Virus record (IMG/VR): IMGVR_UViG_3300048881_000780
Reading direction: 5' to 3' (one strand)
Origin: a virus
Taxonomy: Duplodnaviria; Caudoviricetes
DNA: 64,000 nucleotides
The notes below the pieces were generated by a model. It was not told the DNA's origin. It did not search any database and saw nothing but the letters and a program-made list of their open reading frames with translations. Shown piece after piece: positions 1 through 61,166 of this stretch. Both the position numbers and the translations under genes were made by a program. Numbering within the stretch: position 1 is the first letter of the stretch; every line of letters starts with the position of its first letter.

Positions 1-122
1 CCATAAAGAAGGCCTGGTATAGTGAGAAGGTAACTAAGATTTTATCTTATGCGGGGATTAATGTACTTAAAGATTTTAAATCTAATGGGAAGAATTCTTG
101 GATCAACTCTCTTGAGAAATAA
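1..122 (+). CDS. 3' end of a gene entering the window; ends KNSWINSLEK (NxWL-type tail)
   Basis: Frame from nt 3 is open to TAA 120-122: IKKAWYSEKVTKILSYAGINVLKDFKSNGKNSWINSLEK. Confidence 0.65.
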   Translation, partial: IKKAWYSEKVTKILSYAGINVLKDFKSNGKNSWINSLEK

Positions 123-126
123 TATC

Positions 127-333
127 TTACTTTTCTAGTATTTCGTTAATATCTATCTTTATGGGATTTTCTACTTCCTGAATTCTTCTTGCCAATATTG
201 AGTTGTAAAATAGGTTTGCCGGATTATCAATATACTTAACTTGCCCTTCAAAGAGCCACTCACATTTTCTAACCTTGGATAGTAATTTCTTTACCCTCTC
301 GACCTTATTTTCTTTTGATTCTATATTTTTCAT
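127..333 (-). CDS. hypothetical protein
   Basis: 68 aa; coupled to upstream ORF. Confidence 0.55.
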   Translation of the reverse strand: MKNIESKENKVERVKKLLSKVRKCEWLFEGQVKYIDNPANLFYNSILARRIQEVENPIKIDINEILEK

Positions 334-515
334 TAGATATAACCTCTATATATTAAGTACGACCTCTTTGCTCCTGAAAACGATTCTTGTAAGTCTGGAG
401 AGTTACAAAAAAGTGGACAGAAATTTGGATGTGTCACTTTTTTAAACCAAACTTCATGTCTTAAGTAGTCATCAATCAGAAAGTAATATAGATACATGAG
501 GTATTTCATATACAT
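333..515 (-). CDS. hypothetical protein
   Basis: 60 aa within a minus-strand run. Confidence 0.35.
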   Translation of the reverse strand: MYMKYLMYLYYFLIDDYLRHEVWFKKVTHPNFCPLFCNSPDLQESFSGAKRSYLIYRGYI

Positions 516-524
516 ATTATAACT

Positions 525-1067
525 TTATTCACTATCTTTAACTTTCTTTAAAAGTTTTCTGGCCTTCTCAATAGTTGAAAAGTTGTACTCACAGATATAA
601 TTTCCATCGCCGCAACCACCATGCATTCTAATCATCTCACCATTTGGAAAAGTATCGTTTTTTTGATCGGTAAACATTTCAATGCATCTGATTAGCTCCA
701 AGATGGTTTGATCCTTTTTGGAATTAATATCTTCATTATTACCTAGATTATCAAGGGCGTACTCTAGGGCCTCAGTAAATCCGATTCCACCGTTATAGTA
801 CTTAACCTGGAATCGATACTTATTGTCGCCAATTTCAAAGATATTAAATACATCTAGATTTTCATCAGCTTCTTTCTTTAATATTTTCCAAAGCTCATTA
901 TTTAAAACTATGAATTCTTTATCTAGATCACATTGAACGAATTCAATATAATCATCGTGATAGTCCTCTTTTTTATATCCTAAAGATTTAATATAGTTAG
1001 CGATATCATCTTCTCCAATTATATTTAATTTTTTGATAATACCTTTATAGTGAACATCAGAACTCAC
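525..1067 (-). CDS. hypothetical phage-type protein
   Basis: 180 aa; AGGAG RBS; tight spacing. Confidence 0.7.
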   Translation of the reverse strand: MSSDVHYKGIIKKLNIIGEDDIANYIKSLGYKKEDYHDDYIEFVQCDLDKEFIVLNNELWKILKKEADENLDVFNIFEIGDNKYRFQVKYYNGGIGFTEALEYALDNLGNNEDINSKKDQTILELIRCIEMFTDQKNDTFPNGEMIRMHGGCGDGNYICEYNFSTIEKARKLLKKVKDSE

Positions 1068-1068
1068 A

Positions 1069-2202: not shown

Positions 2203-4353
2203 CTACTCAAAGAAATCTAAAAAATATGAATTACTTGTGTTAATTGTTAAATTACCCTTTTTGGATTTAAGGGTTTCTCCATTTAAAAGCTTCTTTAGAG
2301 ATGTTTTAGAAATAGGCCCAAACTTATTATGCTTCTTAAAAAGAGAAAACTTACAGCTTCCCTCCCAACTCTTCTTTTTTGGATCAAATTTACCAGTCTC
2401 TACACATCTATAAGTTTTAGGGCTTTCTATTATGCCACTTTGACAGATGGGACATTTAATATCCTTTAATTCAGGTTTAGATCCCTTACTCTTTATTTCG
2501 ATATGAGAGAGTTTAGTGCTGGAAATTTCTTTTAACTCTTTAATTGATAATTTTAAACTTTCAAAGTTTTTAGAAATAATATCTCTATGATCAATCTCAC
2601 CATTTAAGATTTCGGATAACTCTCTTTCCATTTGAGCTCTAGTAAGAGGGCTCTTTAATTGATTTGGGAGATATTTATTGATATTTCTAGCTTTAGTGGT
2701 TGAAACAAGAAACTTCTTATCATATTTTAGATAACCACCTTTAACGAGAGCTTCAAGAATGATGGCCCTTGTGGCAACTGTACCAAGTGACATCTTGGTT
2801 TGTTTGAGCTTTGAGAACTCCTCATTACTCATGCTTTCAGGGCGCTTCATTGAGCGATAAATATTTTCCATAGACTCTAGTAGAGTTGCATCTGTATACC
2901 TAGGTCTTGGTTTTGTCTCACCCGTCGCTATTTCAAATTTATCACTGATTAATAGATCACCTTTTTCAATTAAAGGTAGCTTTACTTCACTATCACTCTT
3001 TCTATTGACTTTATTATCAAAAGACTTCCAGCCATGATTAACGACTTCCACAATAGATGAGCTAAAGTTAACTCCTTTTAAATTCGTCTTTCCCACTATG
3101 GTCATCTTTTTTGATTCCTGATCTGGCATAAATTGCATCAGATATCTATTTAGAACCAATTTATAAATATTTTTCTCCTCTTCTGATCTAAAAGAGGCGG
3201 GAATTTCAGATGTAATTGATATGGCGGTATGACTGCTCTTTTCTAATTTCTTGTCATTGAATATGTCTCTTTTTAATAGTGGTCTGGGAAGTTGGTCCAC
3301 TATCTTAGAGAAGACTGATATTTTGCTAGCTAGGTTACTTAAGTACTCGTCGGCATTATCATACTCTGATTCTGAGAAGTAATTTGAATCCGTTCTTGGA
3401 TAAGAGAGGAATTTATTGTCATATAGAGATTGTGCGTACTCAAGAGCTTTCTTGGCCTTAATAGAGTGCTTCTTATTTGATTCTGATTGTAGAGAAGTTA
3501 ATGAATGTGGTTTCTTTGGTGGAGTTACTTTATCTTCAATTTTAACCTTTGACACGGTAAATTCTAATAGCTGATCTCGAATATCTTCAACTTCTTTCTT
3601 TGTTTCAAATTTATTTTCACCATCTTTATCAAATATAACAGAAATTAATTGGTCATCCTTTTTAAGAACTCCTTTTAATTGAAAGAACTCTCTTTTGTTA
3701 AAGTTCTCAAATTCGATATCTCTTTCAATAACTAATTGTACGGTAGGAGTTTTTACTCCTCCAATATGAGCAACATGGTTACTCTCATCTTGTAGGATTG
3801 GCCGTAAACTAACTGTGGCCTGAATGGTCATTTGAATAGATAACCAATCTAGCGTGGATCTAGTTAGACCCGCTAGATGCATTTCTTTATAGGGAATTTT
3901 ATTTTCAATATGAACCTCTTTTTCAAGACTTTTTAAGTCCATTTTGGTCATATTAATCATTCCTCTAACCAATTTCTCTTTTTTTAGCAACTTGAGCACA
4001 CTCATAACAAGGAGAACCCCCTCATTATCAGCATCACTAGCAATAACGATTTCATCACATCTTGAAACAGCTTCTTTTACATTTTGATAAATCTCTTTGG
4101 ACTTCTTATCTCTCTTACAAGATCTCTTTAATTCACTTTTGGGTAAAAAGGGGAATTTATCACTTTGAGCAATTTGATACCAAGGCGTTTTAAATACTTC
4201 CTTAACCTCTTTATAACCCTCTGGTCCCAAGGTTTCTGTGATATGACCTGAGAGCGCAACTATTTCATAATTTTCAAATTTTTGAGAAACGAGGGCCGAT
4301 TTCAAGTTCTTAACCTGTGACCCTTTTTCAGTAATATAGAGCGTTTTTTTCAT
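2203..4353 (-). CDS. topB: type IA DNA topoisomerase (Topo III-like)
   Basis: TOPRIM ITEK..SGH..ASDADNEG; catalytic SYPRTD; GTVATRA; C-terminal CPIC zinc ribbon typical of MGE Topo III. Confidence 0.9.
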   Translation of the reverse strand: MKKTLYITEKGSQVKNLKSALVSQKFENYEIVALSGHITETLGPEGYKEVKEVFKTPWYQIAQSDKFPFLPKSELKRSCKRDKKSKEIYQNVKEAVSRCDEIVIASDADNEGVLLVMSVLKLLKKEKLVRGMINMTKMDLKSLEKEVHIENKIPYKEMHLAGLTRSTLDWLSIQMTIQATVSLRPILQDESNHVAHIGGVKTPTVQLVIERDIEFENFNKREFFQLKGVLKKDDQLISVIFDKDGENKFETKKEVEDIRDQLLEFTVSKVKIEDKVTPPKKPHSLTSLQSESNKKHSIKAKKALEYAQSLYDNKFLSYPRTDSNYFSESEYDNADEYLSNLASKISVFSKIVDQLPRPLLKRDIFNDKKLEKSSHTAISITSEIPASFRSEEEKNIYKLVLNRYLMQFMPDQESKKMTIVGKTNLKGVNFSSSIVEVVNHGWKSFDNKVNRKSDSEVKLPLIEKGDLLISDKFEIATGETKPRPRYTDATLLESMENIYRSMKRPESMSNEEFSKLKQTKMSLGTVATRAIILEALVKGGYLKYDKKFLVSTTKARNINKYLPNQLKSPLTRAQMERELSEILNGEIDHRDIISKNFESLKLSIKELKEISSTKLSHIEIKSKGSKPELKDIKCPICQSGIIESPKTYRCVETGKFDPKKKSWEGSCKFSLFKKHNKFGPISKTSLKKLLNGETLKSKKGNLTINTSNSYFLDFFE

Positions 4354-4702: not shown

Positions 4703-4984
4703 ATGTTAGACGTAAAGAAAAAGAATGAAAGACTAATTTTGACGCAAAAGCGTTTAACTCCAAACAAGAAACTTTCCTTATTAATTGGCAGTGATACAAG
4801 GACTAAGTCAAAGATAATGAAAGATGTCTTCAACTACATTAAAATTAACAAGCTTCATGACTCTCTTGATAGAAATTATATTATTACAGATAAGAAACTT
4901 AAATCTATCGTAAAGAAGAATAGGGTCTCTATTAGAAGTATTCACGTTCAAGTTTTTAAAAACACAACACAAGAAGGTATTTAG
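4703..4984 (+). CDS. SWIB/MDM2 domain protein
   Basis: L..LIG...T....K.V.NYIK.NKLHD..DR..I..D.KL SWIB pattern. Confidence 0.8.
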   Translation: MLDVKKKNERLILTQKRLTPNKKLSLLIGSDTRTKSKIMKDVFNYIKINKLHDSLDRNYIITDKKLKSIVKKNRVSIRSIHVQVFKNTTQEGI

Positions 4985-6926: not shown

Positions 6927-7958
6927 ATGAAAAAGTACAATTACGAAGAAGCTTACAATATTACACAAAAATATCGGGTTTTATATCGCTTTAAGGGTGA
7001 ATATAATGATTTACATAACTGGATATGCAAGAATGGTTTATCTCAAGAACTATATTCACATATGGATAGAACTGAATGGACTATCGAATCAGCTCAAAAA
7101 GAAATTAGTAAATTTAACAACAGAGATGAGTGTATTAAAAACTGTAGAAGTATTTTTAATTGGGCTTCCTTTACTAATAACAGGATAGAAGTGTTGTCCA
7201 TTTTAGATAAGGTTCGACCTGGTAAAAAATCTAAATGGACTCTAGAAAAGGTAAAAATTGAGGCAATGAAGTATGGTCGATCTATCGATTTTGTGAAAGG
7301 GAGCCCAAGTGCTTACAGATGGGCAGTGAGACAAAAATTAACAAAAGAACTTCAATATAATCCATCTATAAAAACGAAATCCTCTCGTTTTCAATGGAAC
7401 TTAGAGAAAGTAATAGAAGAAGCATCTAAGTATGAATACTGTAGAGATTTTTATTATTCATCTAGAGGAGCTTATTCTTGGGCATCAAAGAGAGGGTTAA
7501 TAAAAGAAATCACAAAAGACATGAAGAGGAAACCACATAAATACAATAATACAACTTTAGAAACTGTTTCTAGAGAAGTCAAAGAATTTAAAACAAGAAA
7601 GTCATTAAAAAAACATAGACCAGATTCTTATCATTGGTTAATTAAAAATAAACTTTTAGAGGAATTGTTACCATCTTCAGCAGAAGAGTGGAATATAGAA
7701 AAAATAATGAAAGAAATTGAGGGGATGTCTACTTTTTTAGAATTAAAAAAGAAATCTCCTTGTGCCTACCGATGGCTGTGTCGGAATAATAAATTGAAGA
7801 TTGTCTCGAATAGGTTTTATGACCTACGATACCAAAAAGTCAAAAAGGAAGCACTTAAATATAAGCAGAGGATTGAGTTCTACAAGGAATCAAACTCCGA
7901 ATATCAGTGGGCCCATAGAAATAATCTTCTAGATGAATTCTGTGATCATATGAAATAA
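6927..7958 (+). CDS. tandem-repeat protein (about 7 x 45-50 aa W..E...EA.KY...F....AY.WA)
   Basis: Internal repeats shared with 43531..44523; no nuclease motif seen. Confidence 0.75.
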   Translation: MKKYNYEEAYNITQKYRVLYRFKGEYNDLHNWICKNGLSQELYSHMDRTEWTIESAQKEISKFNNRDECIKNCRSIFNWASFTNNRIEVLSILDKVRPGKKSKWTLEKVKIEAMKYGRSIDFVKGSPSAYRWAVRQKLTKELQYNPSIKTKSSRFQWNLEKVIEEASKYEYCRDFYYSSRGAYSWASKRGLIKEITKDMKRKPHKYNNTTLETVSREVKEFKTRKSLKKHRPDSYHWLIKNKLLEELLPSSAEEWNIEKIMKEIEGMSTFLELKKKSPCAYRWLCRNNKLKIVSNRFYDLRYQKVKKEALKYKQRIEFYKESNSEYQWAHRNNLLDEFCDHMK

Positions 7959-8244: not shown

Positions 8245-10131
8245 TTAGAGCATTTTTTTCATTTCTTCGATAGCGATAATCTCAGTGCCATTCTTCTTTG
8301 CTTTGGTTATTTTACTTGAAGTCCCGTTTACATCCTTTACTACTAGATAACTTAAATCCTTAGTAACAGATGATTTAATCTCTGCTCCAAGTGAAACTAA
8401 TTTTTCTTGAGACTCAGCATCTCTAAAACCAGTAAAGCAAAAGGTCTTTCCTGACAATTTACCGTCACTAACTACTTCAGTTATTGTAACGAACTTCAGT
8501 AGCTCATCGATAAGCTTTTCATTATCTTTAAGACCCTCAATTAAACAATTTGCAGTAATTTCAGCAATGCCATCTACTTTTGACAATTCTTCAACGGTTG
8601 CACCTCTTAAATCTTTTAGAGTTGGATAAACTGTCATGGCCTTTTTAGTAGAAGATGAACCAAAACCATTAATTGATAAACTTTTAATGAATTGAGGAAG
8701 TGCTACACTCTTGCTTTTAAGTTCTAACTCTTTCATTAGCTTATCAACAACTTTAGAACTCATTTTCTCAAGAGTAGAAAATTTCTCTCTATCAACTGTG
8801 TATAAGTCAGCTGGGGTTTCTATTAATTTTGCATCCAGAAGTTTTTCAATAGTGGAAGAGGCCATTCCCTTAACTCCAAGAGCTTTTAAAAAGCCAATAA
8901 ACTTACCAAGCGATTGACTTGGACACTCTTTTGAGTTCGGACAAAATAACTGGGCCTTTGAATCAGTAATTTCTTTATTGATTTCAGTAATATCACGATC
9001 ATCAAGAGTAATTTCATTCTTTCGGTCTACTAACTTAGTTGCGCTTCCACAACTTGGACAGATTCTTGGAATTTCAAAAGGCCCACTCTTATTCTCAATG
9101 AGTGCCCTGATTTTTGGAATTACATCATTTGCTCTAACTAACTCAGCTCTACATCCAGGGCCCAGTCCCATTTTAGCGATGAGAGCGGGATTATTTAAGA
9201 TAACTCTACTAACTGTAACACCAGCTAATTCAGTAGGTTCTAGTAGCCCCACAGGCGTTATAACGCCAGTTTTACCAACTTGCCAAACAATGTCCTTAAT
9301 TATCGTCTCAGAGGCCTGATCGGCGAATTTAAAGGCCCTCGCGGCCCTTGGGCGATTAGATACAATACCTAATTTCTCAAAGTGGACTAAATCATCAGCG
9401 TCAAATACAATTCCATCAACCTCATAAGGTAGAGAGTTTCTATCTTGGGTTGCTTTTAGCACAACCTCTTTGAGTTCACTTCTCTTTACTTTTCCGTAAT
9501 TGGGCATTTCAAAACCAAGCTCTTTTAGATCATTAAATTTATCAAACTTAGAAGTATACTCTTTGTTTTCATCAATAATATCAAAAGCAATACATCTTAA
9601 GTGTTCACAATTTGTTCCATCAAGTTTATTAACCGCTCCAGTCGCAGCGTTTCTTGGGTTCTTTTTATCACTAAAGTGCTTCTGCCAATCTGAGATATGA
9701 AGGATATACTCACACCTTACGACCACTCTACCCTTTCTTTTGATAGTTTTTGGAACATTCATTTTTAGAACATTTGGCGTAATATTATTCCCAACCTCTC
9801 CATTCCCGCCTCTTGTGGCCCCTTGAATGAGCTTTCCATCTTGATAAGTTAACTCACCCGAACTACCATCCAGCTTGTCACTCCATAGGATAAAGTCTGA
9901 ACCATACTTAAGGGCCCATTCGTTTAGTTCATCGACATTATTCTTTATTTTTAATAGAGAACCCATAAAGATACTTAATTTAACCTGAGGCCAGACGCTA
10001 TTATCCTCAATTTCAGTATCAATATCTGAAGCATTTAGGCCAAACATCTCATCATATTGAGAATCACTAATTATTGGATTACCTTCTCTATAGGCCTTAT
10101 CTGCCTGCTCTTTTGTGATTTTCTTAGTCAT
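8245..10131 (-). CDS. ligA: NAD-dependent DNA ligase
   Basis: KLDG adenylation motif, NPRNAA, DGIV, VGKTGVITPV, C4 zinc finger, HhH, BRCT (FCFTG, SVTK). Confidence 0.95.
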   Translation of the reverse strand: MTKKITKEQADKAYREGNPIISDSQYDEMFGLNASDIDTEIEDNSVWPQVKLSIFMGSLLKIKNNVDELNEWALKYGSDFILWSDKLDGSSGELTYQDGKLIQGATRGGNGEVGNNITPNVLKMNVPKTIKRKGRVVVRCEYILHISDWQKHFSDKKNPRNAATGAVNKLDGTNCEHLRCIAFDIIDENKEYTSKFDKFNDLKELGFEMPNYGKVKRSELKEVVLKATQDRNSLPYEVDGIVFDADDLVHFEKLGIVSNRPRAARAFKFADQASETIIKDIVWQVGKTGVITPVGLLEPTELAGVTVSRVILNNPALIAKMGLGPGCRAELVRANDVIPKIRALIENKSGPFEIPRICPSCGSATKLVDRKNEITLDDRDITEINKEITDSKAQLFCPNSKECPSQSLGKFIGFLKALGVKGMASSTIEKLLDAKLIETPADLYTVDREKFSTLEKMSSKVVDKLMKELELKSKSVALPQFIKSLSINGFGSSSTKKAMTVYPTLKDLRGATVEELSKVDGIAEITANCLIEGLKDNEKLIDELLKFVTITEVVSDGKLSGKTFCFTGFRDAESQEKLVSLGAEIKSSVTKDLSYLVVKDVNGTSSKITKAKKNGTEIIAIEEMKKML

Positions 10132-12030: not shown

Positions 12031-12042
12031 TTGGAGTTAGTT

Positions 12043-12774
12043 TTGAAAAATCTAAAAATCACCAACAAGAATGAACTTATTAAATTAAAAGAAGATTTCT
12101 CGAAAGAGTATAAGAAGTTCTTTAATCAAGATCTCAAGAATTCAAAAGTGGAACAATTTCTAGCACAACTATATGGGGCAAAGAACTTTAATACCCTCAT
12201 GGGATCTTTTGAAAATAGCGAAAATATCGAATTCAAATCTTTTGAAGAATTCCAATTATTTATTGAAGATCAGGAAAACCCATATTCTAAGAGAAAACTA
12301 GCGCTCGTTGAGTATTTTCCCTCTCCTTATATTGAAATAGAAGTTACTGAAAATTATGATAAAAGCGGAAATTTTAATACTAATAGAATTCATTATATAG
12401 ATGGTGACGCAATTGCCGATTGTGAAGAAATTTCTAAATTAAAGGCCTTTTTAAAGAATTTGAAGCTCTCTGGAAAAGAATCTGAGTTATCTATTATCTA
12501 TGCTCGCTTAATGGATTTAGATACTGATTATACGGCCCAGGCGATATTTCAAGGTTACGCTGGTGCAGACTATCTTGAATGGGAAGAGTGTATGAATAGT
12601 ATAATTAATACCTTTAATTTCTATAGAGAGATATTCAGTGGAGACCTCTTCGGTGCTCTAATGTTCTCTATGGATTTTCTATTATTTTGTAATGATGGTA
12701 TGATCAGCGATAGCGTTGTTACCCTACTCGATAATACTTTCACTCATGTCGATATAAATAGATCATTTTCATAA
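12043..12774 (+). CDS. hypothetical protein, paralog of 31492..32211
   Basis: Shared N-terminal domain NSKVE.F.A..YG.K..N.L.GSF.N; TTG start after GGAG. Confidence 0.75.
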   Translation: MKNLKITNKNELIKLKEDFSKEYKKFFNQDLKNSKVEQFLAQLYGAKNFNTLMGSFENSENIEFKSFEEFQLFIEDQENPYSKRKLALVEYFPSPYIEIEVTENYDKSGNFNTNRIHYIDGDAIADCEEISKLKAFLKNLKLSGKESELSIIYARLMDLDTDYTAQAIFQGYAGADYLEWEECMNSIINTFNFYREIFSGDLFGALMFSMDFLLFCNDGMISDSVVTLLDNTFTHVDINRSFS

Positions 12775-18781: not shown

Positions 18782-19414
18782 ATGAATATTAAAACATTAA
18801 TTAAAGACATTTCTCTATTTAACTTCAATTACGATAAAAACACTCTAGATATAGATGCTTTTATGCATGAGGTATCAAATTTTTCTGACAAAATTAATCA
18901 TAAAGACCAGTTTGGAACTTGTTTGATGGGAACATTAAACCTAGGTCTATTAAAGTATATCCACTCTCTAGGTGGCGACATTAATGCTACGACAAATACC
19001 AAGGGAATGATTATGTCCCTATTAGGGCAGTCTTTTTATTGGGGAAAACCCGATATCAGTGAATATCTTCTAAAAAATGGGGCCTTATTAGAAAATTCTA
19101 ATGGCGACGGCAATGCTCTAACAGAGATGGCGGATACTATATGTCAAAATACTAAGTGCTTAGATGTTTTGAAGAAGTATAATGATCCTACCACTTGGAT
19201 AAACGAGAAGTATATGTTTTGTAGAGAAGAGCAGGACTTACTATCAATATCAATTAATTCTGGAAATTATATTGTATCACTCTGGTTATTAAGAAATGGA
19301 TTTAAAGTAAATAATCCTGCGTCAATTTTAAATAAACTTACAGGTTCTAGCTATCAATCTAATGAGTCTGGTTACGAAGATTTACTAAGTGAGCTTAAAT
19401 CCCTAAGTCACTAA
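18782..19414 (+). CDS. ankyrin-repeat protein
   Basis: LGGDINA, YLLKNGA, GNAL, LLRNG ankyrin-type motifs. Confidence 0.7.
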   Translation: MNIKTLIKDISLFNFNYDKNTLDIDAFMHEVSNFSDKINHKDQFGTCLMGTLNLGLLKYIHSLGGDINATTNTKGMIMSLLGQSFYWGKPDISEYLLKNGALLENSNGDGNALTEMADTICQNTKCLDVLKKYNDPTTWINEKYMFCREEQDLLSISINSGNYIVSLWLLRNGFKVNNPASILNKLTGSSYQSNESGYEDLLSELKSLSH

Positions 19415-25110: not shown

Positions 25111-25129
25111 AAATCCCCCTTCCTTAACC

Positions 25130-25146
25130 CTAACACGTTGTGTCAT
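25130..25146 (-). promoter_or_regulatory. degenerate TTRAC-N7-GTTAA operator
   Basis: Minus strand ATGACACAACGTGTTAG. Confidence 0.45.
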
Positions 25147-27629: not shown

Positions 27630-27631
27630 TT

Positions 27632-31325: not shown

Positions 31326-31480
31326 CCAATGTGAATCTCACCTCTTGGTTCAAACAGAGGAGACTCTGGCCCTAGGACTCATAAGCGAGATGGCGATATC
31401 TTTGATCATTTAATTGCTTAAAATCTTTATAATTATGCAATTTTGATAATTCCTAGACTCAGATTTATACTTGCATTGGT
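31326..31480 (+). ncRNA. candidate conserved structured leader RNA, copy B
   Basis: CCAATG/CATTGG closing stem, CCTCT/AGAGG hairpin; similar to 11956-12014. Confidence 0.45.
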
Positions 31481-31491
31481 GCGGAGATTTT

Positions 31492-35062: not shown

Positions 35063-35110
35063 AGTATGGATTATGATATAAACTACAGGAACACTACACC
35101 TAGAGGAATT

Positions 35111-35758: not shown

Positions 35759-35797
35759 TGGTCAATATTTAAGTGAACAAATCACAAAAGAGGAGTT

Positions 35798-40718: not shown

Positions 40719-41214
40719 CTTTCTTTAACTCACTCTCTAGGTAATTAAAATACTTCTGAGCATTATCAGTATTTCTAAAGTAATTATCGACTTCCCCGAC
40801 ACTACTCCAAGTAGAAGATAGCGTAAAATCTGATTGCCAGCCAACATTCTTTCCATTTACGATAATTTTACCTTGATACCAAGCTTCACAAATCAAGAAG
40901 TTATCCACGTCAGATAGCAAATCAGCAAAATCGTATGCTTCTTGTCTAGCGGTACATTTACATTCTCTTATATTTGAGAGCGTGCGAGAGTAGTCATCTT
41001 CAACTTCCCTCGGCAGAGCATCTGAAACTATTTGCTCTCCATGAGAGTAGAACTCAACTCTGTAAGATACCTTGCCCGCTTGGTAGTTAACAGCGTAAAC
41101 ATACTTTGAAGTGTTTTTTCCAATGCCAAAGGATCTTGCAATAGCAGGCCTATCTGTAGATGATCCTTTTTGGTAACCTGGATATAAATTAGGTATTTCT
41201 TCGTATATTATCAT
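40696..41214 (-). CDS. LYPG-family protein A2
   Basis: LYPGYQKG; paralog of 42249..42740. Confidence 0.7.
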   Translation of the reverse strand: MIIYEEIPNLYPGYQKGSSTDRPAIARSFGIGKNTSKYVYAVNYQAGKVSYRVEFYSHGEQIVSDALPREVEDDYSRTLSNIRECKCTARQEAYDFADLLSDVDNFLICEAWYQGKIIVNGKNVGWQSDFTLSSTWSSVGEVDNYFRNTDNAQKYFNYLESELKKDGFIDNN

Positions 41215-41221
41215 TATTAAC

Positions 41222-41713
41222 CTATATATCTAGGGCCTTAAGCCAGGAGTTAGTTATTTTATCCTTATTTAAACTTTCCAGAGCTTTTCTAACCATCATT
41301 TTTCTTTGAGAGAAAAACAGCTCCTTTTCTTGTTTAAGTGTTAGATTATTAGGAATTTTCCCTTCTATGAGTCCATGAACCATTTCATGACTTAAGGTTA
41401 TGAGTTTAGTATCTTTAACTATTTCGCAATTAAAATTAGTGAAACATAGTACTTCGTGACGAGTAGAAAGTGCCAATAACTCCTTTATGGGGAGAAACTT
41501 TGTAAACTTCTCTTTGTTTAAAGTTTTTAAATACTTTATAGACTCTAATAGTTTTTCAATATTTAGTGGGTGTCCCTCTATGAATCTTATCTCGATATCA
41601 TTGTTAAAATGATCATTTATAATTTTAGATGCTTCTAAGCGGGATTCCTCTGTATCAAAGTAGATATCACCAATAACATCTCTTTTTGATTTATGTTTTA
41701 ATAATGAATCCAC
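41222..41713 (-). CDS. NxWL-tailed protein X2
   Basis: Paralog of 42749; ends NSWLKALDI. Confidence 0.7.
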   Translation of the reverse strand: MDSLLKHKSKRDVIGDIYFDTEESRLEASKIINDHFNNDIEIRFIEGHPLNIEKLLESIKYLKTLNKEKFTKFLPIKELLALSTRHEVLCFTNFNCEIVKDTKLITLSHEMVHGLIEGKIPNNLTLKQEKELFFSQRKMMVRKALESLNKDKITNSWLKALDI

Positions 41714-41745
41714 CTTCTCTCCCGTATCTAAGAAGTTACTACTAA

Positions 41746-42252
41746 TTAAAAATCTTTTAGAAACCCAGATTGCCTCTCTTCAATCTCTTTAATAAATCTA
41801 TGTGCTCTATCTTCTTGATTAAAGAAATCTTCTATTTCTTTAACACTAGAAAATCTATACCTTATATCATCCATTTGTAATTGTTTTGCCGTTAAGTAGA
41901 AACCTCGTAAAACAACGGCCTGAAGCATATACTTTGAAGCTGTTTGAAAAATGCATTTACTACTATCAAGTTCTAATATTTTTAAAGTATCTTCTTTCGT
42001 GCTACAAGATTCATTCTTGATATTATTAAGCAACTTATGATGCTCGCTTTCAACTCTGTCGTATATAGTTTCTCTTAATCTTTGCTCTCTTTCTGCACTG
42101 AACTCAATGATAACTTCTTCATTGTTAAGATTTGTTAAAACTGTAAAAACAGGTTTAGTCACTCCGTGGGCCTTTGCAAATATGGCATTATCTAACTTAG
42201 TCCCTTTTTCATAACCAGGGTATAAATCTGTGAATTCTTTTGTAATAATCAC
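41746..42252 (-). CDS. LYPG-family protein B1
   Basis: LYPGYEKG. Confidence 0.7.
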   Translation of the reverse strand: MIITKEFTDLYPGYEKGTKLDNAIFAKAHGVTKPVFTVLTNLNNEEVIIEFSAEREQRLRETIYDRVESEHHKLLNNIKNESCSTKEDTLKILELDSSKCIFQTASKYMLQAVVLRGFYLTAKQLQMDDIRYRFSSVKEIEDFFNQEDRAHRFIKEIEERQSGFLKDF

Positions 42253-42740
42253 TCTAAATCCTCTAAGAATTGAAAGTATGAAAGGGCATTATCTTTATTT
42301 TGAAAATATTCTTCAATTTCTGCAATACTACCCCAAACTCCCTCGAGCCCCAGATCACTTTCGTATCCATGATCTTCGTCATTTATAGTTACTTTTCCTT
42401 GAAACCATGAGTTCATAGAAAATAAATCATCGCAATTATTAATTAATTCAACTAATTCACTAGTATCTTTAATGGAATTGCATTTTCACTTTCTAGCATT
42501 AGATAGAGTATTAGAGAATCTATCCTCTACTTCTTCATCTAGATAATTACTTATTCTCTGCTCTCCAGAAGAAAAGAACTTAACTTCATAGGTATTTTCA
42601 CCGAAGTTAGCACTTACTGAACAAACGTGGTTAACTCCGTCATCAAAGTATCCACAACATCTAGTTATGACATCGCTATCAGTGGGAGTCCCCTTTTTAA
42701 AACCTGGATATAGATCCTTCTTATATTTAAAAATAATCAT
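42249..42740 (-). pseudogene. LYPG-family protein A1 with a single in-frame TGA
   Basis: NARK*KCNSIKD...WFQGK...SD.....W aligns full length with 40696; TGA at 42486-42488. Confidence 0.75.
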
Positions 42741-42748
42741 ATCTATTC

Positions 42749-43195
42749 CTATTTTAAAGACTCTAGCCAACTATTGTGAACCTGAATGATTTTAAACTTT
42801 CTTTTTAGATCTCTCTTATCGAAGTGGTGCCATAATTCGATGGCCTTATCCCCATGACGCTCCATCATTTTTAAAGTCCCATTAGCGAGGTATACCTTTT
42901 TATTGTAGATATAACCTAGTGGATCCGTTAATTTTATTGGAAACCAGGTCAATTCACTTTTTACTGAGAACTCCAATAATTTTCTTATTGGTAAAGTTAA
43001 TAATTTCTCATCATTAGCGTCCATATGAGAAAGTAGTGATACTAATTTTGTAATATCTAGCGATTGATGCTCTAGAAAAGTTAATCCAATTTCTAGATGA
43101 TCTCTAATTATCTCACTAGCTCTATCTAGATCTTCAATATTGGAATATTGAATAATTCCACCCCAATGAGCTTTCTTTGGTATTTCTTTTTTCAT
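42749..43195 (-). CDS. NxWL-tailed protein X1
   Basis: AS.II.DH, L.I.KL, LPI..LL shared with 41222; ends NSWLESLK. Confidence 0.7.
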   Translation of the reverse strand: MKKEIPKKAHWGGIIQYSNIEDLDRASEIIRDHLEIGLTFLEHQSLDITKLVSLLSHMDANDEKLLTLPIRKLLEFSVKSELTWFPIKLTDPLGYIYNKKVYLANGTLKMMERHGDKAIELWHHFDKRDLKRKFKIIQVHNSWLESLK

Positions 43196-43530: not shown

Positions 43531-44523
43531 ATGTCAAAAAAAGATAAAAGAGCTATCTATAACTTAGAATTAGTCAAAAAAGTGGCCGATAAATGTACCA
43601 CTATATGTGAATTTAGGACAAGTTATCCAGGTCACTATAATTGGGCCCAAAGAAAAGGTCACTTAAAGATTGTTTGTAAAAATTTATTAAGTACAAGATT
43701 TAAAACAAAAGAATGGTCTCTACCAGCTGTTAAAAAAGAAGCTAAAAAGTATAAATCTAAAGTAGACTTTGTTAAATATTCTAGTGGTGCTTACTATTGG
43801 GCCACAAAAAATGGAAAAATAGATGAAGTTTGCAGTCATTTTAAAACTAATAATATTAAATGGAATTTAGAAATGGCTAAAGAAATTGCATCTAAGTATA
43901 AAAGCTTTAAAGATTTCAGAGAGCATGAACCAAAGTGTTTTTCATATTTTAGAAGAAAACACCCCGAAATTCTTAAATACTTTAATAAGAATGAAAATCT
44001 TTGGAATATAGAGTCTTTAAAACTTGAGGCCCAGAAGTATTCAACCAGGTTTCAGTTTCAAAAATGTGCCGGAGGTGCTTATAACTACGCAAGAAGAAAG
44101 GGGGTATTAGAAGAAGTTTGTGATCATATGGAAAGAGTCGTGCAATATCGAGAGTCAAAATTTGGAGATCGACTTAGTGATAAGATCAAATCTAAACTGA
44201 ATTCATTAGGTATTAATTTTAAATTACATAGAGAATACCATACTAGTGATGGTAAATCAGGTAGAATTGATTTTCTATTAGAACTAGAGAACATTTTAAT
44301 TCCAATTGAGGTTAAACACGATGATAGCTCATGGAGTGAACTGGAAATAAAGAGACAGTTAAAAAAGTATGACAATTATTTTCACAATGCGAGAGAAATG
44401 GTCACTCTTAAAACAATACTAGTTTCCCCTTTTGGAAGGTATGGAATACCTGAAGATGTCTTCTTGGGTCAATTGGTTGATATATGTAAGAGCAACCTCT
44501 CTGAATTTAGAGAGGCCTGTTAA
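43531..44523 (+). CDS. repeat-array protein with C-terminal PD-(D/E)xK nuclease (homing-endonuclease-like)
   Basis: About 4 repeats, then RIDF...IPIEVK ... QL.KY. Confidence 0.75.
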   Translation: MSKKDKRAIYNLELVKKVADKCTTICEFRTSYPGHYNWAQRKGHLKIVCKNLLSTRFKTKEWSLPAVKKEAKKYKSKVDFVKYSSGAYYWATKNGKIDEVCSHFKTNNIKWNLEMAKEIASKYKSFKDFREHEPKCFSYFRRKHPEILKYFNKNENLWNIESLKLEAQKYSTRFQFQKCAGGAYNYARRKGVLEEVCDHMERVVQYRESKFGDRLSDKIKSKLNSLGINFKLHREYHTSDGKSGRIDFLLELENILIPIEVKHDDSSWSELEIKRQLKKYDNYFHNAREMVTLKTILVSPFGRYGIPEDVFLGQLVDICKSNLSEFREAC

Positions 44524-50200: not shown

Positions 50201-50690
50201 ATGAGAAAAGATAGACCTTTCATATTTAAAATTGATACTCGCAATAATAAGACTCTCGAAATAGATCTCTATAGTCGTATTAAGTATAATTTTGTTATAG
50301 ATTGGGGAGATGGCAGTTATGAAGAAGTTAAGTATTCACCCCTATCAGGGAATAAGGATTCAATTTGCCATAGTTATACTGGTGAAAATGTCTATACCGT
50401 AACGATATCAGGTAATGTTGAAGCAATGCTATTTAATAGTGAATCAAGGAAATGTCTTGTTGAAGTTATTGACCTTGGTGATTGCAACTGGAAGAGTTTA
50501 TCTGAGATGTTTATTCGCTGTTCTAATCTTCAATCTTTCTCTGAAGGAATAACTCAATTTTTCAAAAAATGGATCTCAATCAATTTTAGTAAATAATTTT
50601 GCTAAGGATAGACTCTTTAAGAATGTTACCAATATAAACGCCCTGGATGTTAATGCAATCTCTAATTCGTGATTGAGATCTATTGCTTAG
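50201..50690 (+). pseudogene. internally deleted DUF285/BspA paralog
   Basis: RPFIFKI/IDWGDG/DLGDCNW start; repeats missing; another frame carries the C-terminus ...NAISNS*LRSIA (TGA 50670-50672 at the tag Trp). Confidence 0.75.
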
Positions 50691-50873: not shown

Positions 50874-51533
50874 CTATTTTACGAAAGAGTTTACTAGCTC
50901 GATATCTTCTTTTAAAGCGAAAAAAGATGATCTACCTATGAATATTAATTCACAAACCTTCTTACAATTCCTCTCTTTATTAATTCTAAAAAAGGTTGCA
51001 AGATCTGCTCTAGGTGAAACACTCATTAGAAGTCTTCCTTTAATCCAAGGATTATTTTTAACAAGCCATTTTCGATCCATAAACTTTCTATCTTCTTGAA
51101 AAGGAATTTTTCTGTAGTTGACGCCAAACTCATTTAAAAATGTATCTAAAGCTTCACGGGGGTATTTATTCGAAACGACATCAATCTCATTTTTTTGAAG
51201 CCTATTTTTAAGGTGAGATATGATTTTTAACCATCTTCCTTTTGAATCTGAATCTCTAGCGATAGCACAAAGAGAGCCTAGTATTCTTAACTCTACATCA
51301 TCTAGACCAATAGATAATTTTAAAAGAGCATCTGTTCTTAAAAGATGTGAGTTTATATTAATCCACGTTCTTAAGAGTGAGTGGAATCTAGTTTCCTTTT
51401 TTATAAGAGATAATCCACATTCTTTAATCAACTCGACAATAAATACTTCAGGAGGAACAGTGTAGTTATTTATCCCTCCAGTAAAAGTAAAACCTAGCCC
51501 GTTTGCAATATTGTAAAGTCTATTCTTTATCAA
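50874..51533 (-). CDS. NTase partner with C-terminal HTH-like region, copy 3
   Basis: PE..I, W....L...L, RW, NPW..GR......RAD shared with 27632. Confidence 0.65.
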   Translation of the reverse strand: MIKNRLYNIANGLGFTFTGGINNYTVPPEVFIVELIKECGLSLIKKETRFHSLLRTWININSHLLRTDALLKLSIGLDDVELRILGSLCAIARDSDSKGRWLKIISHLKNRLQKNEIDVVSNKYPREALDTFLNEFGVNYRKIPFQEDRKFMDRKWLVKNNPWIKGRLLMSVSPRADLATFFRINKERNCKKVCELIFIGRSSFFALKEDIELVNSFVK

Positions 51534-52035
51534 AAATTGACTCCTCTGCTTGTTTTAAGTCAAAGATTTCGATAGTATTCAAATCGAAGCTTTCGACAAA
51601 TGCTTTCGCTATTTTGTACTCATTTCTACTTGGTTTTAAAGAAATAAGATCTTCAAGATCAAAATCTCTGTCTACAACTGCTTTTAATTTACTTGAAATT
51701 AGATCTTGCCGAGAAATCCCCTTGATTCGTAAGTGACTATAGCTCTTTATGTGTATCACTCTATCTATCCAGCCACTAGGTATTTGACTTTCAAATGCTT
51801 TAGCGTGATCATTGAGCCAGTTTTCTTCATAACCTAATCTTTTGGCAACTGCATTACGGGCCTTATTTAGATTGTCGCTCATCTTAGGGGATAAAAAATC
51901 TATATCTCTTGTTGCACGATTAGAAATTTCACTAAGCACCAATAAAGCACCTCCGCAAATTACCAAGTTAATTCTTTCGTCAAATTTAGACAGCTCTTCA
52001 TTTAGCAAAGTTAGGGACTTTTCTAAATCTATCAT
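51520..52035 (-). CDS. DUF6036/AbiEii-like nucleotidyltransferase, copy 3
   Basis: ICGGALL..RATRDID; WLN; PSGW.DR; DLISSKL.A..R..DLEDL. Confidence 0.85.
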   Translation of the reverse strand: MIDLEKSLTLLNEELSKFDERINLVICGGALLVLSEISNRATRDIDFLSPKMSDNLNKARNAVAKRLGYEENWLNDHAKAFESQIPSGWIDRVIHIKSYSHLRIKGISRQDLISSKLKAVVDRDFDLEDLISLKPSRNEYKIAKAFVESFDLNTIEIFDLKQAEESIFDKE

Positions 52036-53813: not shown

Positions 53814-55007
53814 ATGTCAGCAAAGAAGAAGGAAACTAAAAAAGATAATGAACTTAAGCGTTTTTTTAACCGTGAAGGTTTACAAGTAAACCTAGACTTT
53901 GAAAAAGAACTTAAGGCCATCGAAGAAAATACTAAGATTGAAGCTGTTAGTGACCCTAGAGAATTAACTTTTGAACAAAAGGTCGCCAGATCAAAGGCCC
54001 TAATCATTGAGGCCGTTGAGCAATTTGGTATCGACCAGGTATATACAGCATTCAGTGGTGGAAAGGATTCTGCCGTTGTTGCTCACCTGGTGGAGTCGAT
54101 CTATCCAAAAATGGTTCCGGAAGTTTTCTGTAATACGGGCCTAGAATTACCTGAGATCGTTAAGATGGTTAAAAAGCACCGTGATCACTATAAGAGAAAT
54201 GTAGTGATTTTAAGGCCAGTTAAGAGCTTTAGACAGGTTATTTCTGAGTATGGCTACCCTATCATCTCTAAACAGGTGGCGATGGCCATTTCTCGCTGGC
54301 AAAATACTAGTGATCCACTTCAGAGAATCCTTAGATGGCGTGGTGGAATCAATAGAAAGGGGAAAATGCAAAAAACTGGTGTTATCCCAAATAAGTTTAA
54401 GCACCTGGCACTAATGGGTGAATCTAAAATTAAAGACTCTGAGGATTTCATGACGGATGAACTTAGAGAGAAGGTAAACGGAGCTCCAAACTTTAAGGTA
54501 ACTGAGAGATGTTGTTACTTCTTTAAGAAGGCCCCTTTTGTTAAGTACGAAAAGGATCAAAAAAAGAAACTTGGACTTAAAAAGAGTGATAAATTTCTAG
54601 CTTTCACAGGTACTAGATCAGATGAGAGTTTTCTTAGAAAGCAGGACTTTTTAAAGTATGGTTGTAATGCTTTTAATAAAGGAAAACCAAGATCTAGACC
54701 TATCATGTTTTGGGATGACGAAGATGTAAATAGATACATCAAAGAGTATAATGTAGAGATCTGTGAGGTCTACTATGATCAACATAGATTTTGCGAAGAA
54801 ACTCAAAAGATCATTTTTGTTCCAGCTGAAGAGAGAACGGGCTGTATGTTCTGTGCTTATGGATTACATATGGACGTTAAAAAGGATCCAAAGAATACAA
54901 GATTTCATAGATTAAAATTAAGACACCCAAAGCTATATAAGTATTGTATGGAAAAGTTGGGATTTAGAAAAGTACTTAAGGAATATGTAGGGATTGATTT
55001 TGATTAA
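53814..55007 (+). CDS. PAPS-reductase-family protein, copy 2
   Basis: AFSGGKDS, NTGLE.PE, CC...KK.P, GTR.DES..R, RTGCMFC. Confidence 0.9.
   Translation: MSAKKKETKKDNELKRFFNREGLQVNLDFEKELKAIEENTKIEAVSDPRELTFEQKVARSKALIIEAVEQFGIDQVYTAFSGGKDSAVVAHLVESIYPKMVPEVFCNTGLELPEIVKMVKKHRDHYKRNVVILRPVKSFRQVISEYGYPIISKQVAMAISRWQNTSDPLQRILRWRGGINRKGKMQKTGVIPNKFKHLALMGESKIKDSEDFMTDELREKVNGAPNFKVTERCCYFFKKAPFVKYEKDQKKKLGLKKSDKFLAFTGTRSDESFLRKQDFLKYGCNAFNKGKPRSRPIMFWDDEDVNRYIKEYNVEICEVYYDQHRFCEETQKIIFVPAEERTGCMFCAYGLHMDVKKDPKNTRFHRLKLRHPKLYKYCMEKLGFRKVLKEYVGIDFD
53877..53892. promoter_or_regulatory. parS-like palindrome 3 (inside CDS)
   Basis: GGTTTACAAGTAAACC. Confidence 0.6.
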
Positions 55008-57252: not shown

Positions 57253-57849
57253 TCACTTTAATGATTCTAGCCATAAGTTCGTTTTCTTTGTAGGAATCAA
57301 TGGATTAAACTTTTTCACCCCAAAGAGGCCAGTAAGGTAATCTTCAGAACAATCCTCAAATGCCTCTCCAATTTCTTTATCAGTAGACTCAAGGTCTCTA
57401 CCAAATTCATTATTGGCCCATTTATCAAAATTCATCTTGTTAAGATTTCCATTATATATAAAGTAACAATCCCTGCTGGTAGTAAAACAACTCCATCCCT
57501 TTAGTACCGATCTACAGTCATACATCATGGAGGCGTTTCTAAGAAGCTTCAAAATTTCACTAGAGTTATGAAGATCTCTAGGTAACTTGTGTAAATGCAA
57601 CTTTAAATCCCTAGGAATTGAGCGATCCCATTTTTTCGGATCTAAACCAATATTTGAAATTAGATAATCTCGACAATCTACAAAATCCGATTTGTTACTA
57701 AATTGAAAGAATCCAGAAAATGAATACTTAGGCATAAACCATCCCTTGATGTTTTCGTTTCTTTTGGGAGTTTGGATCAACTGGACACTATTAGAAAAGT
57801 CATATTCAATCCATTTTTTATACTCAATTTTGGCTCCATTTTTCATCAA
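57253..57849 (-). CDS. NxWL-tailed hypothetical protein
   Basis: Ends NLWLESLK; true start may be ATG 57735; weak G..QFSN..D similarity to X1. Confidence 0.65.
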   Translation of the reverse strand: MMKNGAKIEYKKWIEYDFSNSVQLIQTPKRNENIKGWFMPKYSFSGFFQFSNKSDFVDCRDYLISNIGLDPKKWDRSIPRDLKLHLHKLPRDLHNSSEILKLLRNASMMYDCRSVLKGWSCFTTSRDCYFIYNGNLNKMNFDKWANNEFGRDLESTDKEIGEAFEDCSEDYLTGLFGVKKFNPLIPTKKTNLWLESLK

Positions 57850-58480: not shown

Positions 58481-59284
58481 TCAAGATAGAGATTTTAACC
58501 AGGTATTAGAGTTAGATATTGATCTCTCTTTAACAGTCACCCCATCCATGCTCTTAAAGTGCTTTTTCTTTGTTTCACTATTAGCGATAATTTTATTAAA
58601 GATACTTCCTGCAAATATACTCTTAGTATCTACGTCATCGTTTAATCTAAAACTTGAAATATCTAGGGTTTTTATATTCCTAAACCCTGAAAACATTTTT
58701 TTTACAAACTTAACTTCTGGTGTTCTAAAACTCGACAAATTGACTTCTTCAAGAGAGACCATATTAAAAAACATATATGACATGGCCGTAATCTTAGAAG
58801 TATCAAAGCTTCTTAAATCTAGGGAGGTACATTTTCGTACATCCGAGAACATTCGATACATTGATTTTACATTGCTAGTATTAAAACTAGATAAATCAAT
58901 ATATTCTAGACTAGTGGCCCCCTTAAACATTTTTGACATAGTGTTAACATTGGTAGTAACTCCACCACTAAAAGACCTTAAGTTTACGCAGTTGCAAAAC
59001 ATGTGACTAAGATCGAACCAATCACAATCCCCTAAATCAACTACCTCAGTTAGTAAAGGAAGCGATTCGTAAGAAAAACGCATAGTTCCCACTGTTCCGG
59101 ATATAGTTACCGTGTACTCTCCTATTTTTTCATAAGTAGATGAAATACAGCTATATTCCCCCTCGTATCTTTCGACTTTTCCATTTCCCCAATCGATAAC
59201 AAAGTCGTGCTCTGTATCACAATCTAATTCAAGAGCAAGTTCCTTAGTATTATCCATCATTATTTTAAATATAAATGGTTTCAT
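58481..59284 (-). CDS. PKD-like + DUF285/BspA-like protein with NxW tail
   Basis: IDWGNG; LDLSSFxTSxVxxMxxMF repeats; ends NTWLKSLS. Confidence 0.85.
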   Translation of the reverse strand: MKPFIFKIMMDNTKELALELDCDTEHDFVIDWGNGKVERYEGEYSCISSTYEKIGEYTVTISGTVGTMRFSYESLPLLTEVVDLGDCDWFDLSHMFCNCVNLRSFSGGVTTNVNTMSKMFKGATSLEYIDLSSFNTSNVKSMYRMFSDVRKCTSLDLRSFDTSKITAMSYMFFNMVSLEEVNLSSFRTPEVKFVKKMFSGFRNIKTLDISSFRLNDDVDTKSIFAGSIFNKIIANSETKKKHFKSMDGVTVKERSISNSNTWLKSLS

Positions 59285-60093
59285 GATATTGCCTTTAACC
59301 AGTTATTTCTTTGGTTATTAATGGGTTTAGTAATAACTTTTTCATTATCTTTAAAGTACTTTAACTTCGCTGACCCAGATACCATTACTTGAAGTGGCCC
59401 TTCATTGAAAATATTATCTATATCGCAGTTATCAAAGTTAAATCCACTAAGATCTAGAAACTTTAGGGATTTGCATTTTTCAAATAGAAAGCTCATATCC
59501 TTTATGTTTTTAGTATCTATAGAACTTAAATTAATAGATTCAAGTGCTCTCATTTCACTAAATATACAACTGGCCTCAATTAATTTTGAAGTATCGAAAC
59601 TAGACAGATCTAAATGCTTCAGGGAACAAGTATTATGAAACATAAAACTCATATCTAAAACATTTCTTGTATCAAATGAGGATAAATCCACACTCTCTAG
59701 GGAAGTAGCATTACAGAACATCCCCTTCATATTTGTAACATGAGAAGTCTCTCCCCCTTTAAATTTTATTAAGTTAGAGCAAGCGTAGAATATATCATTA
59801 AGTGATTCCCAATTACAATTACCTAGATCAATGACTTCAGTGATCATTGTTGCTGTATCAAAATTAAATCCTAGCTTTTTAATATCTCCGCTTATTCGAA
59901 TAATATAATCCTTACTATCTTTATACTCATGATAGATTGATCTACTTCTTAAGTCAGGATCATTGCGCTCCACTATATTTCCATCACCCCAGTCTATAGA
60001 AAACTCATATCCTGAGTGTTTAGTGAAATTAATCGTAACTCTCTTATTCTCCCCTCCAAAAACAAGAATATCATAAAACAGAACTTGACACAA
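59281..60093 (-). CDS. PKD-like + DUF285/BspA-like protein with NxW tail
   Basis: IDWGDG; same repeats; ends NNWLKAIS; start uncertain. Confidence 0.8.
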   Translation of the reverse strand: MCQVLFYDILVFGGENKRVTINFTKHSGYEFSIDWGDGNIVERNDPDLRSRSIYHEYKDSKDYIIRISGDIKKLGFNFDTATMITEVIDLGNCNWESLNDIFYACSNLIKFKGGETSHVTNMKGMFCNATSLESVDLSSFDTRNVLDMSFMFHNTCSLKHLDLSSFDTSKLIEASCIFSEMRALESINLSSIDTKNIKDMSFLFEKCKSLKFLDLSGFNFDNCDIDNIFNEGPLQVMVSGSAKLKYFKDNEKVITKPINNQRNNWLKAIS

Positions 60094-60113
60094 GTCGTTA
60101 ACAAATATATACT
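60085..60113 (+). promoter_or_regulatory. sigma70 promoter with overlapping operator
   Basis: TTGACACAAGTCGTTAA; TTGACA-N17-TATACT. Confidence 0.8.
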
Positions 60114-60147
60114 ATACAAAACTAATCGGTTTTACTTAGGGGGAGAG

Positions 60148-60396
60148 ATGAGATCATTTAATTTTAAAGCTAAAAAAGTTGAAACTGCTGGCTCTAAAGT
60201 AGAACTCATAAGAGTTACATCAGAAGAAGAATTAGAAAAAGTAGTTCATTTCTTAAAGGGATTATGTGTACAAACTTACGCATATTATACAAAACACAAT
60301 CCTAACTCCAATTCATTTGCTAGTGAGGAGGAATTTGAGAGGTATGTGGTAGATGAAGCATCTAGAGATAGTGCTCAAGTAGTTGTTTTACTTTAA
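60148..60396 (+). CDS. hypothetical protein
   Basis: ATG after GGGGGAG. Confidence 0.6.
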   Translation: MRSFNFKAKKVETAGSKVELIRVTSEEELEKVVHFLKGLCVQTYAYYTKHNPNSNSFASEEEFERYVVDEASRDSAQVVVLL

Positions 60397-60416
60397 TTTA
60401 ACCAAGAGATTAGCAT

Positions 60417-61166
60417 ATGAAACATACTCCAAAGAAACCATTAGTACTCTACTTTCAGACAAAAATTGGTGAAAAGATTGAAATTGATATCACAAAAAAA
60501 GACGCAAAACCTCTACAAATCACCTGTGGAGATGAATCGTATATCTCAAATGAAGAAATTGAATATGAATGCTTCACTCCTAAGTTAAGTAGTGATGGTT
60601 CGTACGTCGTAAAGGTTTGGGGAGATCTAGATTTAAGATTTGCCTTTCAAAACATCTCTTTATTGAATAATCTGATCAAAGTTGAAACTGGAGACTTTAT
60701 ATTCACTCATCCAGACTCTTTTAATGGTTGCATTAATTTAAGAGAGTTTCATGTAACTGGCATGGCCATTATGACAAATATTAAAGGAATGTTCTGCGGG
60801 TGTGCTTCTCTAGATTATATAGATTTAAGAGGTGTCTTTTTTACAGATGACGTTAACTCTACTGAATTCATGTTCTCGTACTGTGAAAATTTAAGAAAAG
60901 TAGAATTTCCTAGATCCTCTTTTGGTGAAAATATCCACAATATGAATAGAATGTTTCTCGATTGCCCTAAACTAGAACATGTAAATATGAGAAGATTTAG
61001 ACCTAGTGAAGAGGTATTAATGGAGTCTCTACTTGATACAAAAGCCATGTGTGGACAAATTACAGTATCTCATAGTGTGAAAGAGAGATATTTCCAAGAT
61101 AGTGATATTTTCTGTACGTCGGATACTACAAATATCTGGTTAGAGTCTCTTTCGGATGTTGCCTAA
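60417..61166 (+). CDS. DUF285/BspA-like protein with NxW tail (closest to 29611)
   Basis: E.GD..F, MF..C..L, FP..FG..I.N, FRP shared; ends NIWLESLSDVA. Confidence 0.75.
   Translation: MKHTPKKPLVLYFQTKIGEKIEIDITKKDAKPLQITCGDESYISNEEIEYECFTPKLSSDGSYVVKVWGDLDLRFAFQNISLLNNLIKVETGDFIFTHPDSFNGCINLREFHVTGMAIMTNIKGMFCGCASLDYIDLRGVFFTDDVNSTEFMFSYCENLRKVEFPRSSFGENIHNMNRMFLDCPKLEHVNMRRFRPSEEVLMESLLDTKAMCGQITVSHSVKERYFQDSDIFCTSDTTNIWLESLSDVA

Follow-up and report, generated by a model that had tools for sequence, protein, structure and literature searches.

Why do leucine-rich repeat (LRR) proteins and small orphan proteins encoded on one mobile element end in the same short peptide? The question is raised by IMG/VR virus record IMGVR_UViG_3300048881_000780 (Duplodnaviria; Caudoviricetes), of which a stretch of 64,000 nucleotides (nt), here called the window, was analyzed and treated as part of a giant plasmid-like mobile element of a bacterium. 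Nine genes and one decayed gene of the window encode the C-terminal motif N-x-W-[LI]-x-[SA]-[LI], hereafter the tag. The tag is a real, strongly non-random, protein-level C-terminal peptide. As its best explanation we propose, with moderate confidence, an address label that is read by one shared protein receptor.

The tag is confined to protein C-termini

In a six-frame translation of the window the motif was matched nine times, and all nine matches end 1 to 4 residues before a stop codon, as a preliminary description of this DNA had reported. No further match to the strict pattern exists in the six frames. The ten tails listed in that description, i.e. the nine strict matches and one remnant, were all recovered at the places given, positions 29611 and 60417 being starts rather than ends of open reading frames (ORFs). 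The carriers are as follows, with Pfam cut-offs of 25 bits for DUF285 (PF03382) and 27.7 bits for LRR_5 (PF13306):

3-122 (+), 3' end of X0, a small carrier; tag at 93-113, 2 residues before the stop
29611-30339 (+), DUF285/BspA LRR carrier (LRR_5, 28.4 bits); tag at 30313-30333, 1 residue before the stop
33921-34589 (−), DUF285/BspA LRR carrier (DUF285, 38.8 bits); tag at 33930-33950, 2 residues before the stop
41222-41713 (−), X2, a small carrier and paralog of X1; tag at 41231-41251
42749-43195 (−), X1, a small carrier; tag at 42755-42775
50201-50690 (+), decayed DUF285 gene; tag remnant at 50664-50684, with the Trp codon TGG changed to TGA
57253-57849 (−), X3, a small carrier without repeats; tag at 57259-57279
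58481-59284 (−), DUF285/BspA LRR carrier (DUF285, 89.6 bits), used as query for the structure model; tag at 58487-58507
59281-60093 (−), DUF285/BspA LRR carrier (DUF285, 70.8 bits); tag at 59287-59307
60417-61166 (+), DUF285/BspA LRR carrier; tag at 61131-61151, 4 residues before the stop

The X0 gene starts 408 nt before the window. Overlapping Logan contigs add 2.3 kb upstream of the window, and in one of them (L002:10946-11476, −) the complete gene was found to encode 176 residues without LRR repeats. The product of 60417-61166 scored below the Pfam cut-off but is a BLAST paralog of the DUF285 carriers (E = 2e-22), and the stop of 59281-60093 overlaps the start of the neighboring carrier gene. 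In the decayed gene an intact N-terminal domain (50201-50596) is followed by a frameshift and lost repeats; it shares 50% identity with 58481-59284 over 116 residues.

Mononucleotide shuffles gave an expectation of 0.30 matches per window and 0.07 near a stop codon. With residue shuffles of the 111-ORF proteome, 0.036 matches were expected (0.0005 at C-termini), and the analytic expectation was 0.043 in the proteome and 0.0012 at C-termini. The C-terminal enrichment anticipated in the preliminary description was thus borne out, with nine matches observed versus approximately 0.001 expected at this position. About one in twelve window proteins bears the tag, and relaxed patterns retrieved no further carrier among the real ORFs of the window. 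The codons used for the tag differ at synonymous sites (AAT or AAC for Asn; CTN, TTA or ATH for Leu/Ile; TCN, AGT or GCN for Ser/Ala), indicating that selection acts on the peptide. A DNA- or RNA-level signal was ruled out because synonymous positions vary freely.

A 210-residue ORF at 18782-19414 (+) ends in L-S-E-L-K-S-L-S-H, in which L-K-S-L-S is present and Glu stands in the place of Trp. This tag-like end may be a decayed tag or a chance occurrence.

Carriers of at least two folds share the tag

Carriers were grouped by all-against-all BLAST and Pfam. The LRR group consists of five intact DUF285/BspA carriers and the pseudogene, in agreement with the six repeat proteins counted before, and their bodies are 25-40% identical. 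The products of 41222, 42749 and 57253 are small non-repeat proteins, as had been noted, and so is X0. Paralogy of X1 and X2 extends over the first 80 residues (E = 6e-8). Aligned with one another, the four small carriers hint at a common N-terminal strand and helix; after removal of the last 12 residues, neither an X1+X2 profile nor phmmer tied X0 or X3 to anything, and a single family comprising the four is at most possible. The AlphaFold2 (AF2) model of this group was unusable (predicted local distance difference test, pLDDT, of 40). No homolog of the small carriers outside the element was found in 5.8 billion clusters or 1.84 billion representatives, and a search of the ESM Atlas gave none.

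Judged by sequence, the carriers form four groups, with two demonstrably different folds. That four groups and two folds carry the tail is enough to show that it moved between, or arose in, unrelated proteins. The earlier wording, ten proteins from unrelated families, has to be narrowed to this extent: an LRR family and unlike small proteins do share the tail, but the demonstrable diversity ends at these four groups.

The tag is predicted to stand apart from the folded body

The body of the carrier encoded at 58481-59284 was modeled as an LRR solenoid with TpLRR (6mlx) and BACOVA_04585 (4fs7) as best matches in the PDB. The AF2 model had a pLDDT of 92.8, with values above 90 for residues 1-240, 65 for residues 251-260 and 48 for residues 261-267. 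A lone helix at residues 261-266 coincides with the tag and does not dock onto the body in cis.

Mean pairwise identity among the carriers is 0.59 in the motif versus 0.07 in the preceding 20 residues, and the motif is the only conserved segment within the C-terminal 27 residues. Outside the element, 119 DUF285 homologs of the best DUF285 carrier were compared and none had the tag, which rules out a generic DUF285 end cap. Because these homologs lack the tail, the model confidence drops and the preceding residues are unconserved, the tag is, as modeled, not part of the carrier fold. The preliminary description had considered the case that all carriers are homologs in which the helix forms a structural cap; the outside homologs and the existence of non-LRR carriers speak otherwise. 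A structural end-piece without modular function, inherited in paralog families, might still be argued from the fact that most carriers are paralogs and that a W-I-T-S-K-F helix is present approximately 14 residues from the end of a few outside DUF285 proteins. With at least two unrelated folds carrying a tail that is unpacked in the model, and with that tail absent from the outside homologs, we regard this explanation as very unlikely and nearly excluded.

The lack of cis docking in the monomer model also bears on a different possibility, namely that the tail of one carrier is bound in trans by an LRR carrier at its concave face, so that hetero-oligomers or chains form without a separate hub. 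LRR solenoids bind short peptides and helices, the tail is found on LRR and small proteins alike, and the genes are interspersed. However, a co-evolving receptor would not be expected to show the pattern seen here, with LRR surfaces diverged to the identities given above and a tail that stayed constant, and we consider such carrier-to-carrier assembly improbable.

On a helical wheel, Trp and the two Leu/Ile residues fall on one face with Ser/Ala beside them, Asn takes the N-cap place, and the variable positions are polar. The tag has a hydrophobic moment of 0.52; the C-termini of other window ORFs have 0.38 and the FtsA helix 0.57. The tag itself is near neutral (net charge −2 to +1); three copies have Glu at position 5, and in three the motif is followed by Asp. 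The preceding 20 residues have a mean charge of +2.25 versus −0.24 in the other 99 ORFs of at least 60 residues (Mann–Whitney p = 0.005); they are basic (+2 to +4) in six to seven of nine carriers and carry −1 or −2 in two. The model thus points to a two-turn amphipathic helix, capped by Asn, on a linker that is short, unconserved and usually basic. Of the amphipathic Trp helix proposed in the preliminary description, a short amphipathic helix outside the folded body was retained, as predicted by AF2 at low local confidence.

These properties call for comparison with the main rival explanation, in which the basic linker and the Trp-containing amphipathic helix hold the carriers peripherally at the inner side of the cytoplasmic membrane, in the manner of FtsA and MinD, without any protein receptor. 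The C-terminal helix of FtsA is an established membrane anchor (PMC8897712, PMC4252000). The end of Escherichia coli FtsA (NC_000913.3) contains two W-[IL]-basic units, and the first four of its last residues, NSWLRKEF, are identical to the commonest form of the tag. In FtsA and MinD, too, a terminal amphipathic helix follows a flexible linker; the hydrophobic moment of the tag is near that of the FtsA helix, and the mostly basic pre-tail would suit anionic lipids. In contrast to the tag, however, the FtsA and MinD helices have 10-15 residues, are basic, and occur on one protein rather than across families. The tag helix comprises approximately seven residues, is near neutral and contains acidic residues, and two carriers have acidic pre-tails. 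Moreover, membrane helices keep their character and not their sequence, whereas Asn, Trp and the small residue (Ser/Ala) of the tag are invariant across unrelated carriers. This invariance favors a protein pocket over a lipid surface, and we judge membrane tethering to be unlikely.

Occurrence outside the window

The closest relative found was a 150-kb Logan contig (DRR526075_6768) with a 51% identical topoisomerase. The 41 kb of it that were examined include comparable backbone genes (PAPS reductase, AbiEii); neither the tag nor a DUF285 gene was present there. In metagenomes, 80 loci around topoisomerases of the same clade or more distant ones (approximately 1 Mb) contained no tag and no other recurrent tail. 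Searches with degenerate DNA patterns, which would catch approximately one tag in ten and whose negative outcome is therefore weak evidence, gave scattered and mostly non-terminal matches in IMG/VR, none of them clustered or convincingly terminal, and 42 matches in GTDB species genomes, none at the end of a real ORF. A PDB sequence search with two of the tails returned nothing meaningful, and a literature search found no description of the motif. The present element is so far the only one from which the tag is known.

Several of the GTDB matches are one repeated short stretch that lies outside long ORFs in many Bacteroidota genomes (L201, L206, L208, L211, L224, L235 and others). It is probably a conserved RNA or a repeat, unrelated to the tag.

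The tag as a candidate address label

Encapsulins, microcompartments and some secretion systems are known to use short terminal peptides by which unrelated proteins are directed to one machine, and we assign the tag to this known class of terminal address peptides, as a new form. In the mechanism that we propose, the portable tag helix would sit at the end of otherwise different soluble proteins and be gripped by one shared receptor protein. Through this receptor, the diversified LRR binders and several small orphan proteins would be brought together at one site or machine. Most likely, this machine would be a non-Sec apparatus for export or transfer, belonging to the element or to its host, and our leading guess for the receptor is a protein resembling a type IV coupling protein.

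Export is favored on three grounds. First, the DUF285/BspA family is otherwise extracellular, yet the carriers have no classical export signal and bear the tag instead. Those few outside homologs that have a source name are annotated as surface proteins; dockerin or cell-wall-binding repeat domains occur in several. By hydropathy, the carriers lack the export or anchoring signal usual for DUF285/BspA proteins (Sec signal, lipobox, or wall or T9SS anchor): the absence of signal peptides asserted in the preliminary description was upheld, with neither a transmembrane segment nor a signal-like N-terminus detected, and the sole hydrophobic N-terminus among the carriers is that of the doubtful TTG start of 59281-60093. 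Second, the pre-tail is basic in most carriers, as in VirB/D4 substrates. Third, the element has plasmid-type backbone genes (TopB-type topoisomerase).

A close parallel is offered by type IV secretion signals. A basic C-terminal region is described for VirB/D4 signals by Vergunst 2005 (PMC545537), as cited in PMC8406263, and XVIPCD effectors are read by VirD4 (PMC8740702). Like the tag, the signals of Agrobacterium VirB/D4, Dot/Icm and XVIPCD substrates are C-terminal and occur on many unrelated or repeat-containing soluble proteins that lack Sec signals. They are not cleaved, and the tag, 1 to 4 residues from the stop, lies within the last 20-50 residues. The location of the carriers on a large mobile element with a plasmid-type TopB adds to the likeness, as the pre-tail may, being basic in most carriers, acidic in two and followed by a near-neutral tag. 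Known type IV signals differ, however, being loose patterns of charge or composition, or a domain of 120 residues, whereas the tag is a sharply defined Trp motif of 7 residues.

An exposed peptide at the C-terminus, attached by a flexible linker, is also how ssrA-type degrons and the SspB tail are built, and the tag might accordingly hand the carriers, or targets bound to them, to an AAA+ protease or remodeler such as ClpXP, ClpAP or Lon. Known C-terminal degrons, however, need the last residues and a free carboxylate, while here 1 to 4 variable residues follow the motif. The tag is unlike LAA-type or basic ClpX motifs, and no protease or AAA+ gene was found in the approximately 80 window ORFs scanned for families. 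A role as degron or protease adaptor is therefore considered rather doubtful, at about the level assigned to carrier-to-carrier assembly.

Cargo loading into a shell offers another comparison. The family 1 encapsulin targeting peptide, consensus SDGSLGIGSLKRS (PMC8346489), is likewise short, C-terminal, attached by a flexible linker and portable among unrelated cargo proteins, and its hydrophobic-x-S-L-K ending resembles several tag copies. Its L-G-I-G-S-L-K core was not matched: the consensus has no Trp or Asn, and its Gly residues are absent from the tag. Encapsulin cargo proteins are enzymes encoded next to the shell gene, whereas the tag carriers include a dispersed LRR family, and no gene for an HK97-fold shell was found among the scanned ORFs (Pfam, PHROG). 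The encapsulation peptides of microcompartments have the same working format as the tag; by sequence or by context, the tag does not match them.

In type VII secretion, the C-terminal tail of EsxB is bound by the EccC ATPase (PMC6954902), so that, as proposed for the tag, the last residues of a substrate dock in a pocket, there of the secretion ATPase. The tag carriers lack the YxxxD/E motif and are LRR solenoids or orphans of 150-200 residues rather than WXG100 helical hairpins, and the two motif sequences are unrelated. The poxvirus ankyrin-repeat/PRANC (F-box-like) proteins resemble the carriers in joining variable repeat binders to a C-terminal recruiting module that is constant, and in paralog expansion on a large mobile genome. 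PRANC, however, is a folded domain of approximately 40-50 residues that binds Skp1, whereas the tag has 7 residues and is prokaryotic.

Several points weigh against the receptor-read address label. Compared with known type IV signals, the tag is defined much more sharply. Family scans of the approximately 80 window ORFs revealed neither a type IV machine nor a coupling-protein gene, and no secretion, packaging, capsid, protease, AAA+ or other peptide-binding candidate. The absence of the tag from the relatives examined leaves it without comparative support and without a co-occurring gene. The low AF2 confidence in the tail may partly reflect the alignment, in which only five paralog rows hold the tail, and the basic pre-tail is no more than suggestive, the carriers being paralogs and the samples thus not independent.

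A more far-reaching version of the address label is that the element has a sorting code of its own, in which one dedicated receptor would send the signal-less LRR library and the orphans through an export, transfer or packaging machine. We put this forward tentatively, as possible though with less confidence than the address label as such.

Genomic context of the carriers

The window has a G+C content of 32% and is approximately 91% coding, with short genes on both strands. A Shine–Dalgarno-like motif precedes 51% of predicted starts versus 13% of random positions, and this enrichment indicates prokaryotic translation. In a protein database record the window proteins are assigned to a contig of 361,129 bp. 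No close phage or plasmid record was found in PLSDB and phage collections. TopB-like enzymes are characteristic of conjugative plasmids: among the 5000 best plasmid matches of the TopB-like topoisomerase, 3961 are conjugative.

X1 and X2 lie in two tandem X-A-B cassettes (40272-43195, −), each composed of a tagged small gene followed by two 'LYPG' paralogs, with X2 opening the second cassette. The paralogs, all on the − strand, are:

42486-42770 and 42249-42416, A1, in two ORFs relative to A2 and probably frameshifted
41746-42252, B1
40696-41214, A2
40272-40718, B2

Neither the A nor the B proteins match a family in Pfam, PHROGs or NCBIfam. The same holds for most window ORFs, and recognizable genes are few. 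Family scans additionally identified an ion-channel protein, a GmrSD_N-like gene and a DUF2779 protein, together with the following:

2203-4353, TopB-type topoisomerase IA
4703-4984 (+), 93-residue protein with a precomputed SWIB/MDM2-domain match, adjoining the topoisomerase gene
8245-10131, NAD-dependent ligase
21681-22896, 27102-28327 and 50874-52035, three paralogous DUF6036/AbiEii nucleotidyltransferase modules of two genes each
24298-25146 (−) and 53814-55007 (+), two PAPS-reductase-like genes

The SWIB/MDM2 domain is unusual outside eukaryotes, chlamydiae and large viruses. A PAPS-reductase-like gene is also present in the closest relative (L245:7180-8055) and may be a backbone gene of the element family. 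In each DUF6036/AbiEii-like module the partner gene (approximately 230 residues) is paralogous across all three, and the modules resemble a triplicated type IV toxin–antitoxin or Abi-like pair. Four tandem genes at 35066-38021 (+) encode proteins of 225-273 residues, none of them tagged. Paralogy is detectable among three of these, and the N-termini of the last three are hydrophobic; they possibly represent a membrane or secreted family. Two dispersed paralog pairs were noted, 6927-7958 (+) with 43531-44523 (+) (E = 1e-14; weak NucS-like C-terminal match) and 12031-12774 (+) with 31471-32211 (+) (E = 2e-23).

Significance of the tag

Most secretion signals are fuzzy and hard to predict. The tag, a candidate signal, is sharp, unlike most of these, and it marks diversified LRR binders that lack a classical export signal. 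If the sorting code proposed above is real, it would represent a sequence-defined targeting signal of a kind undescribed for any secretion or loading system. Identification of the receptor would yield a compact, transferable protein-recruiting tag; it would also give dozens of orphan genes a role in one step and show what purpose the LRR library serves.

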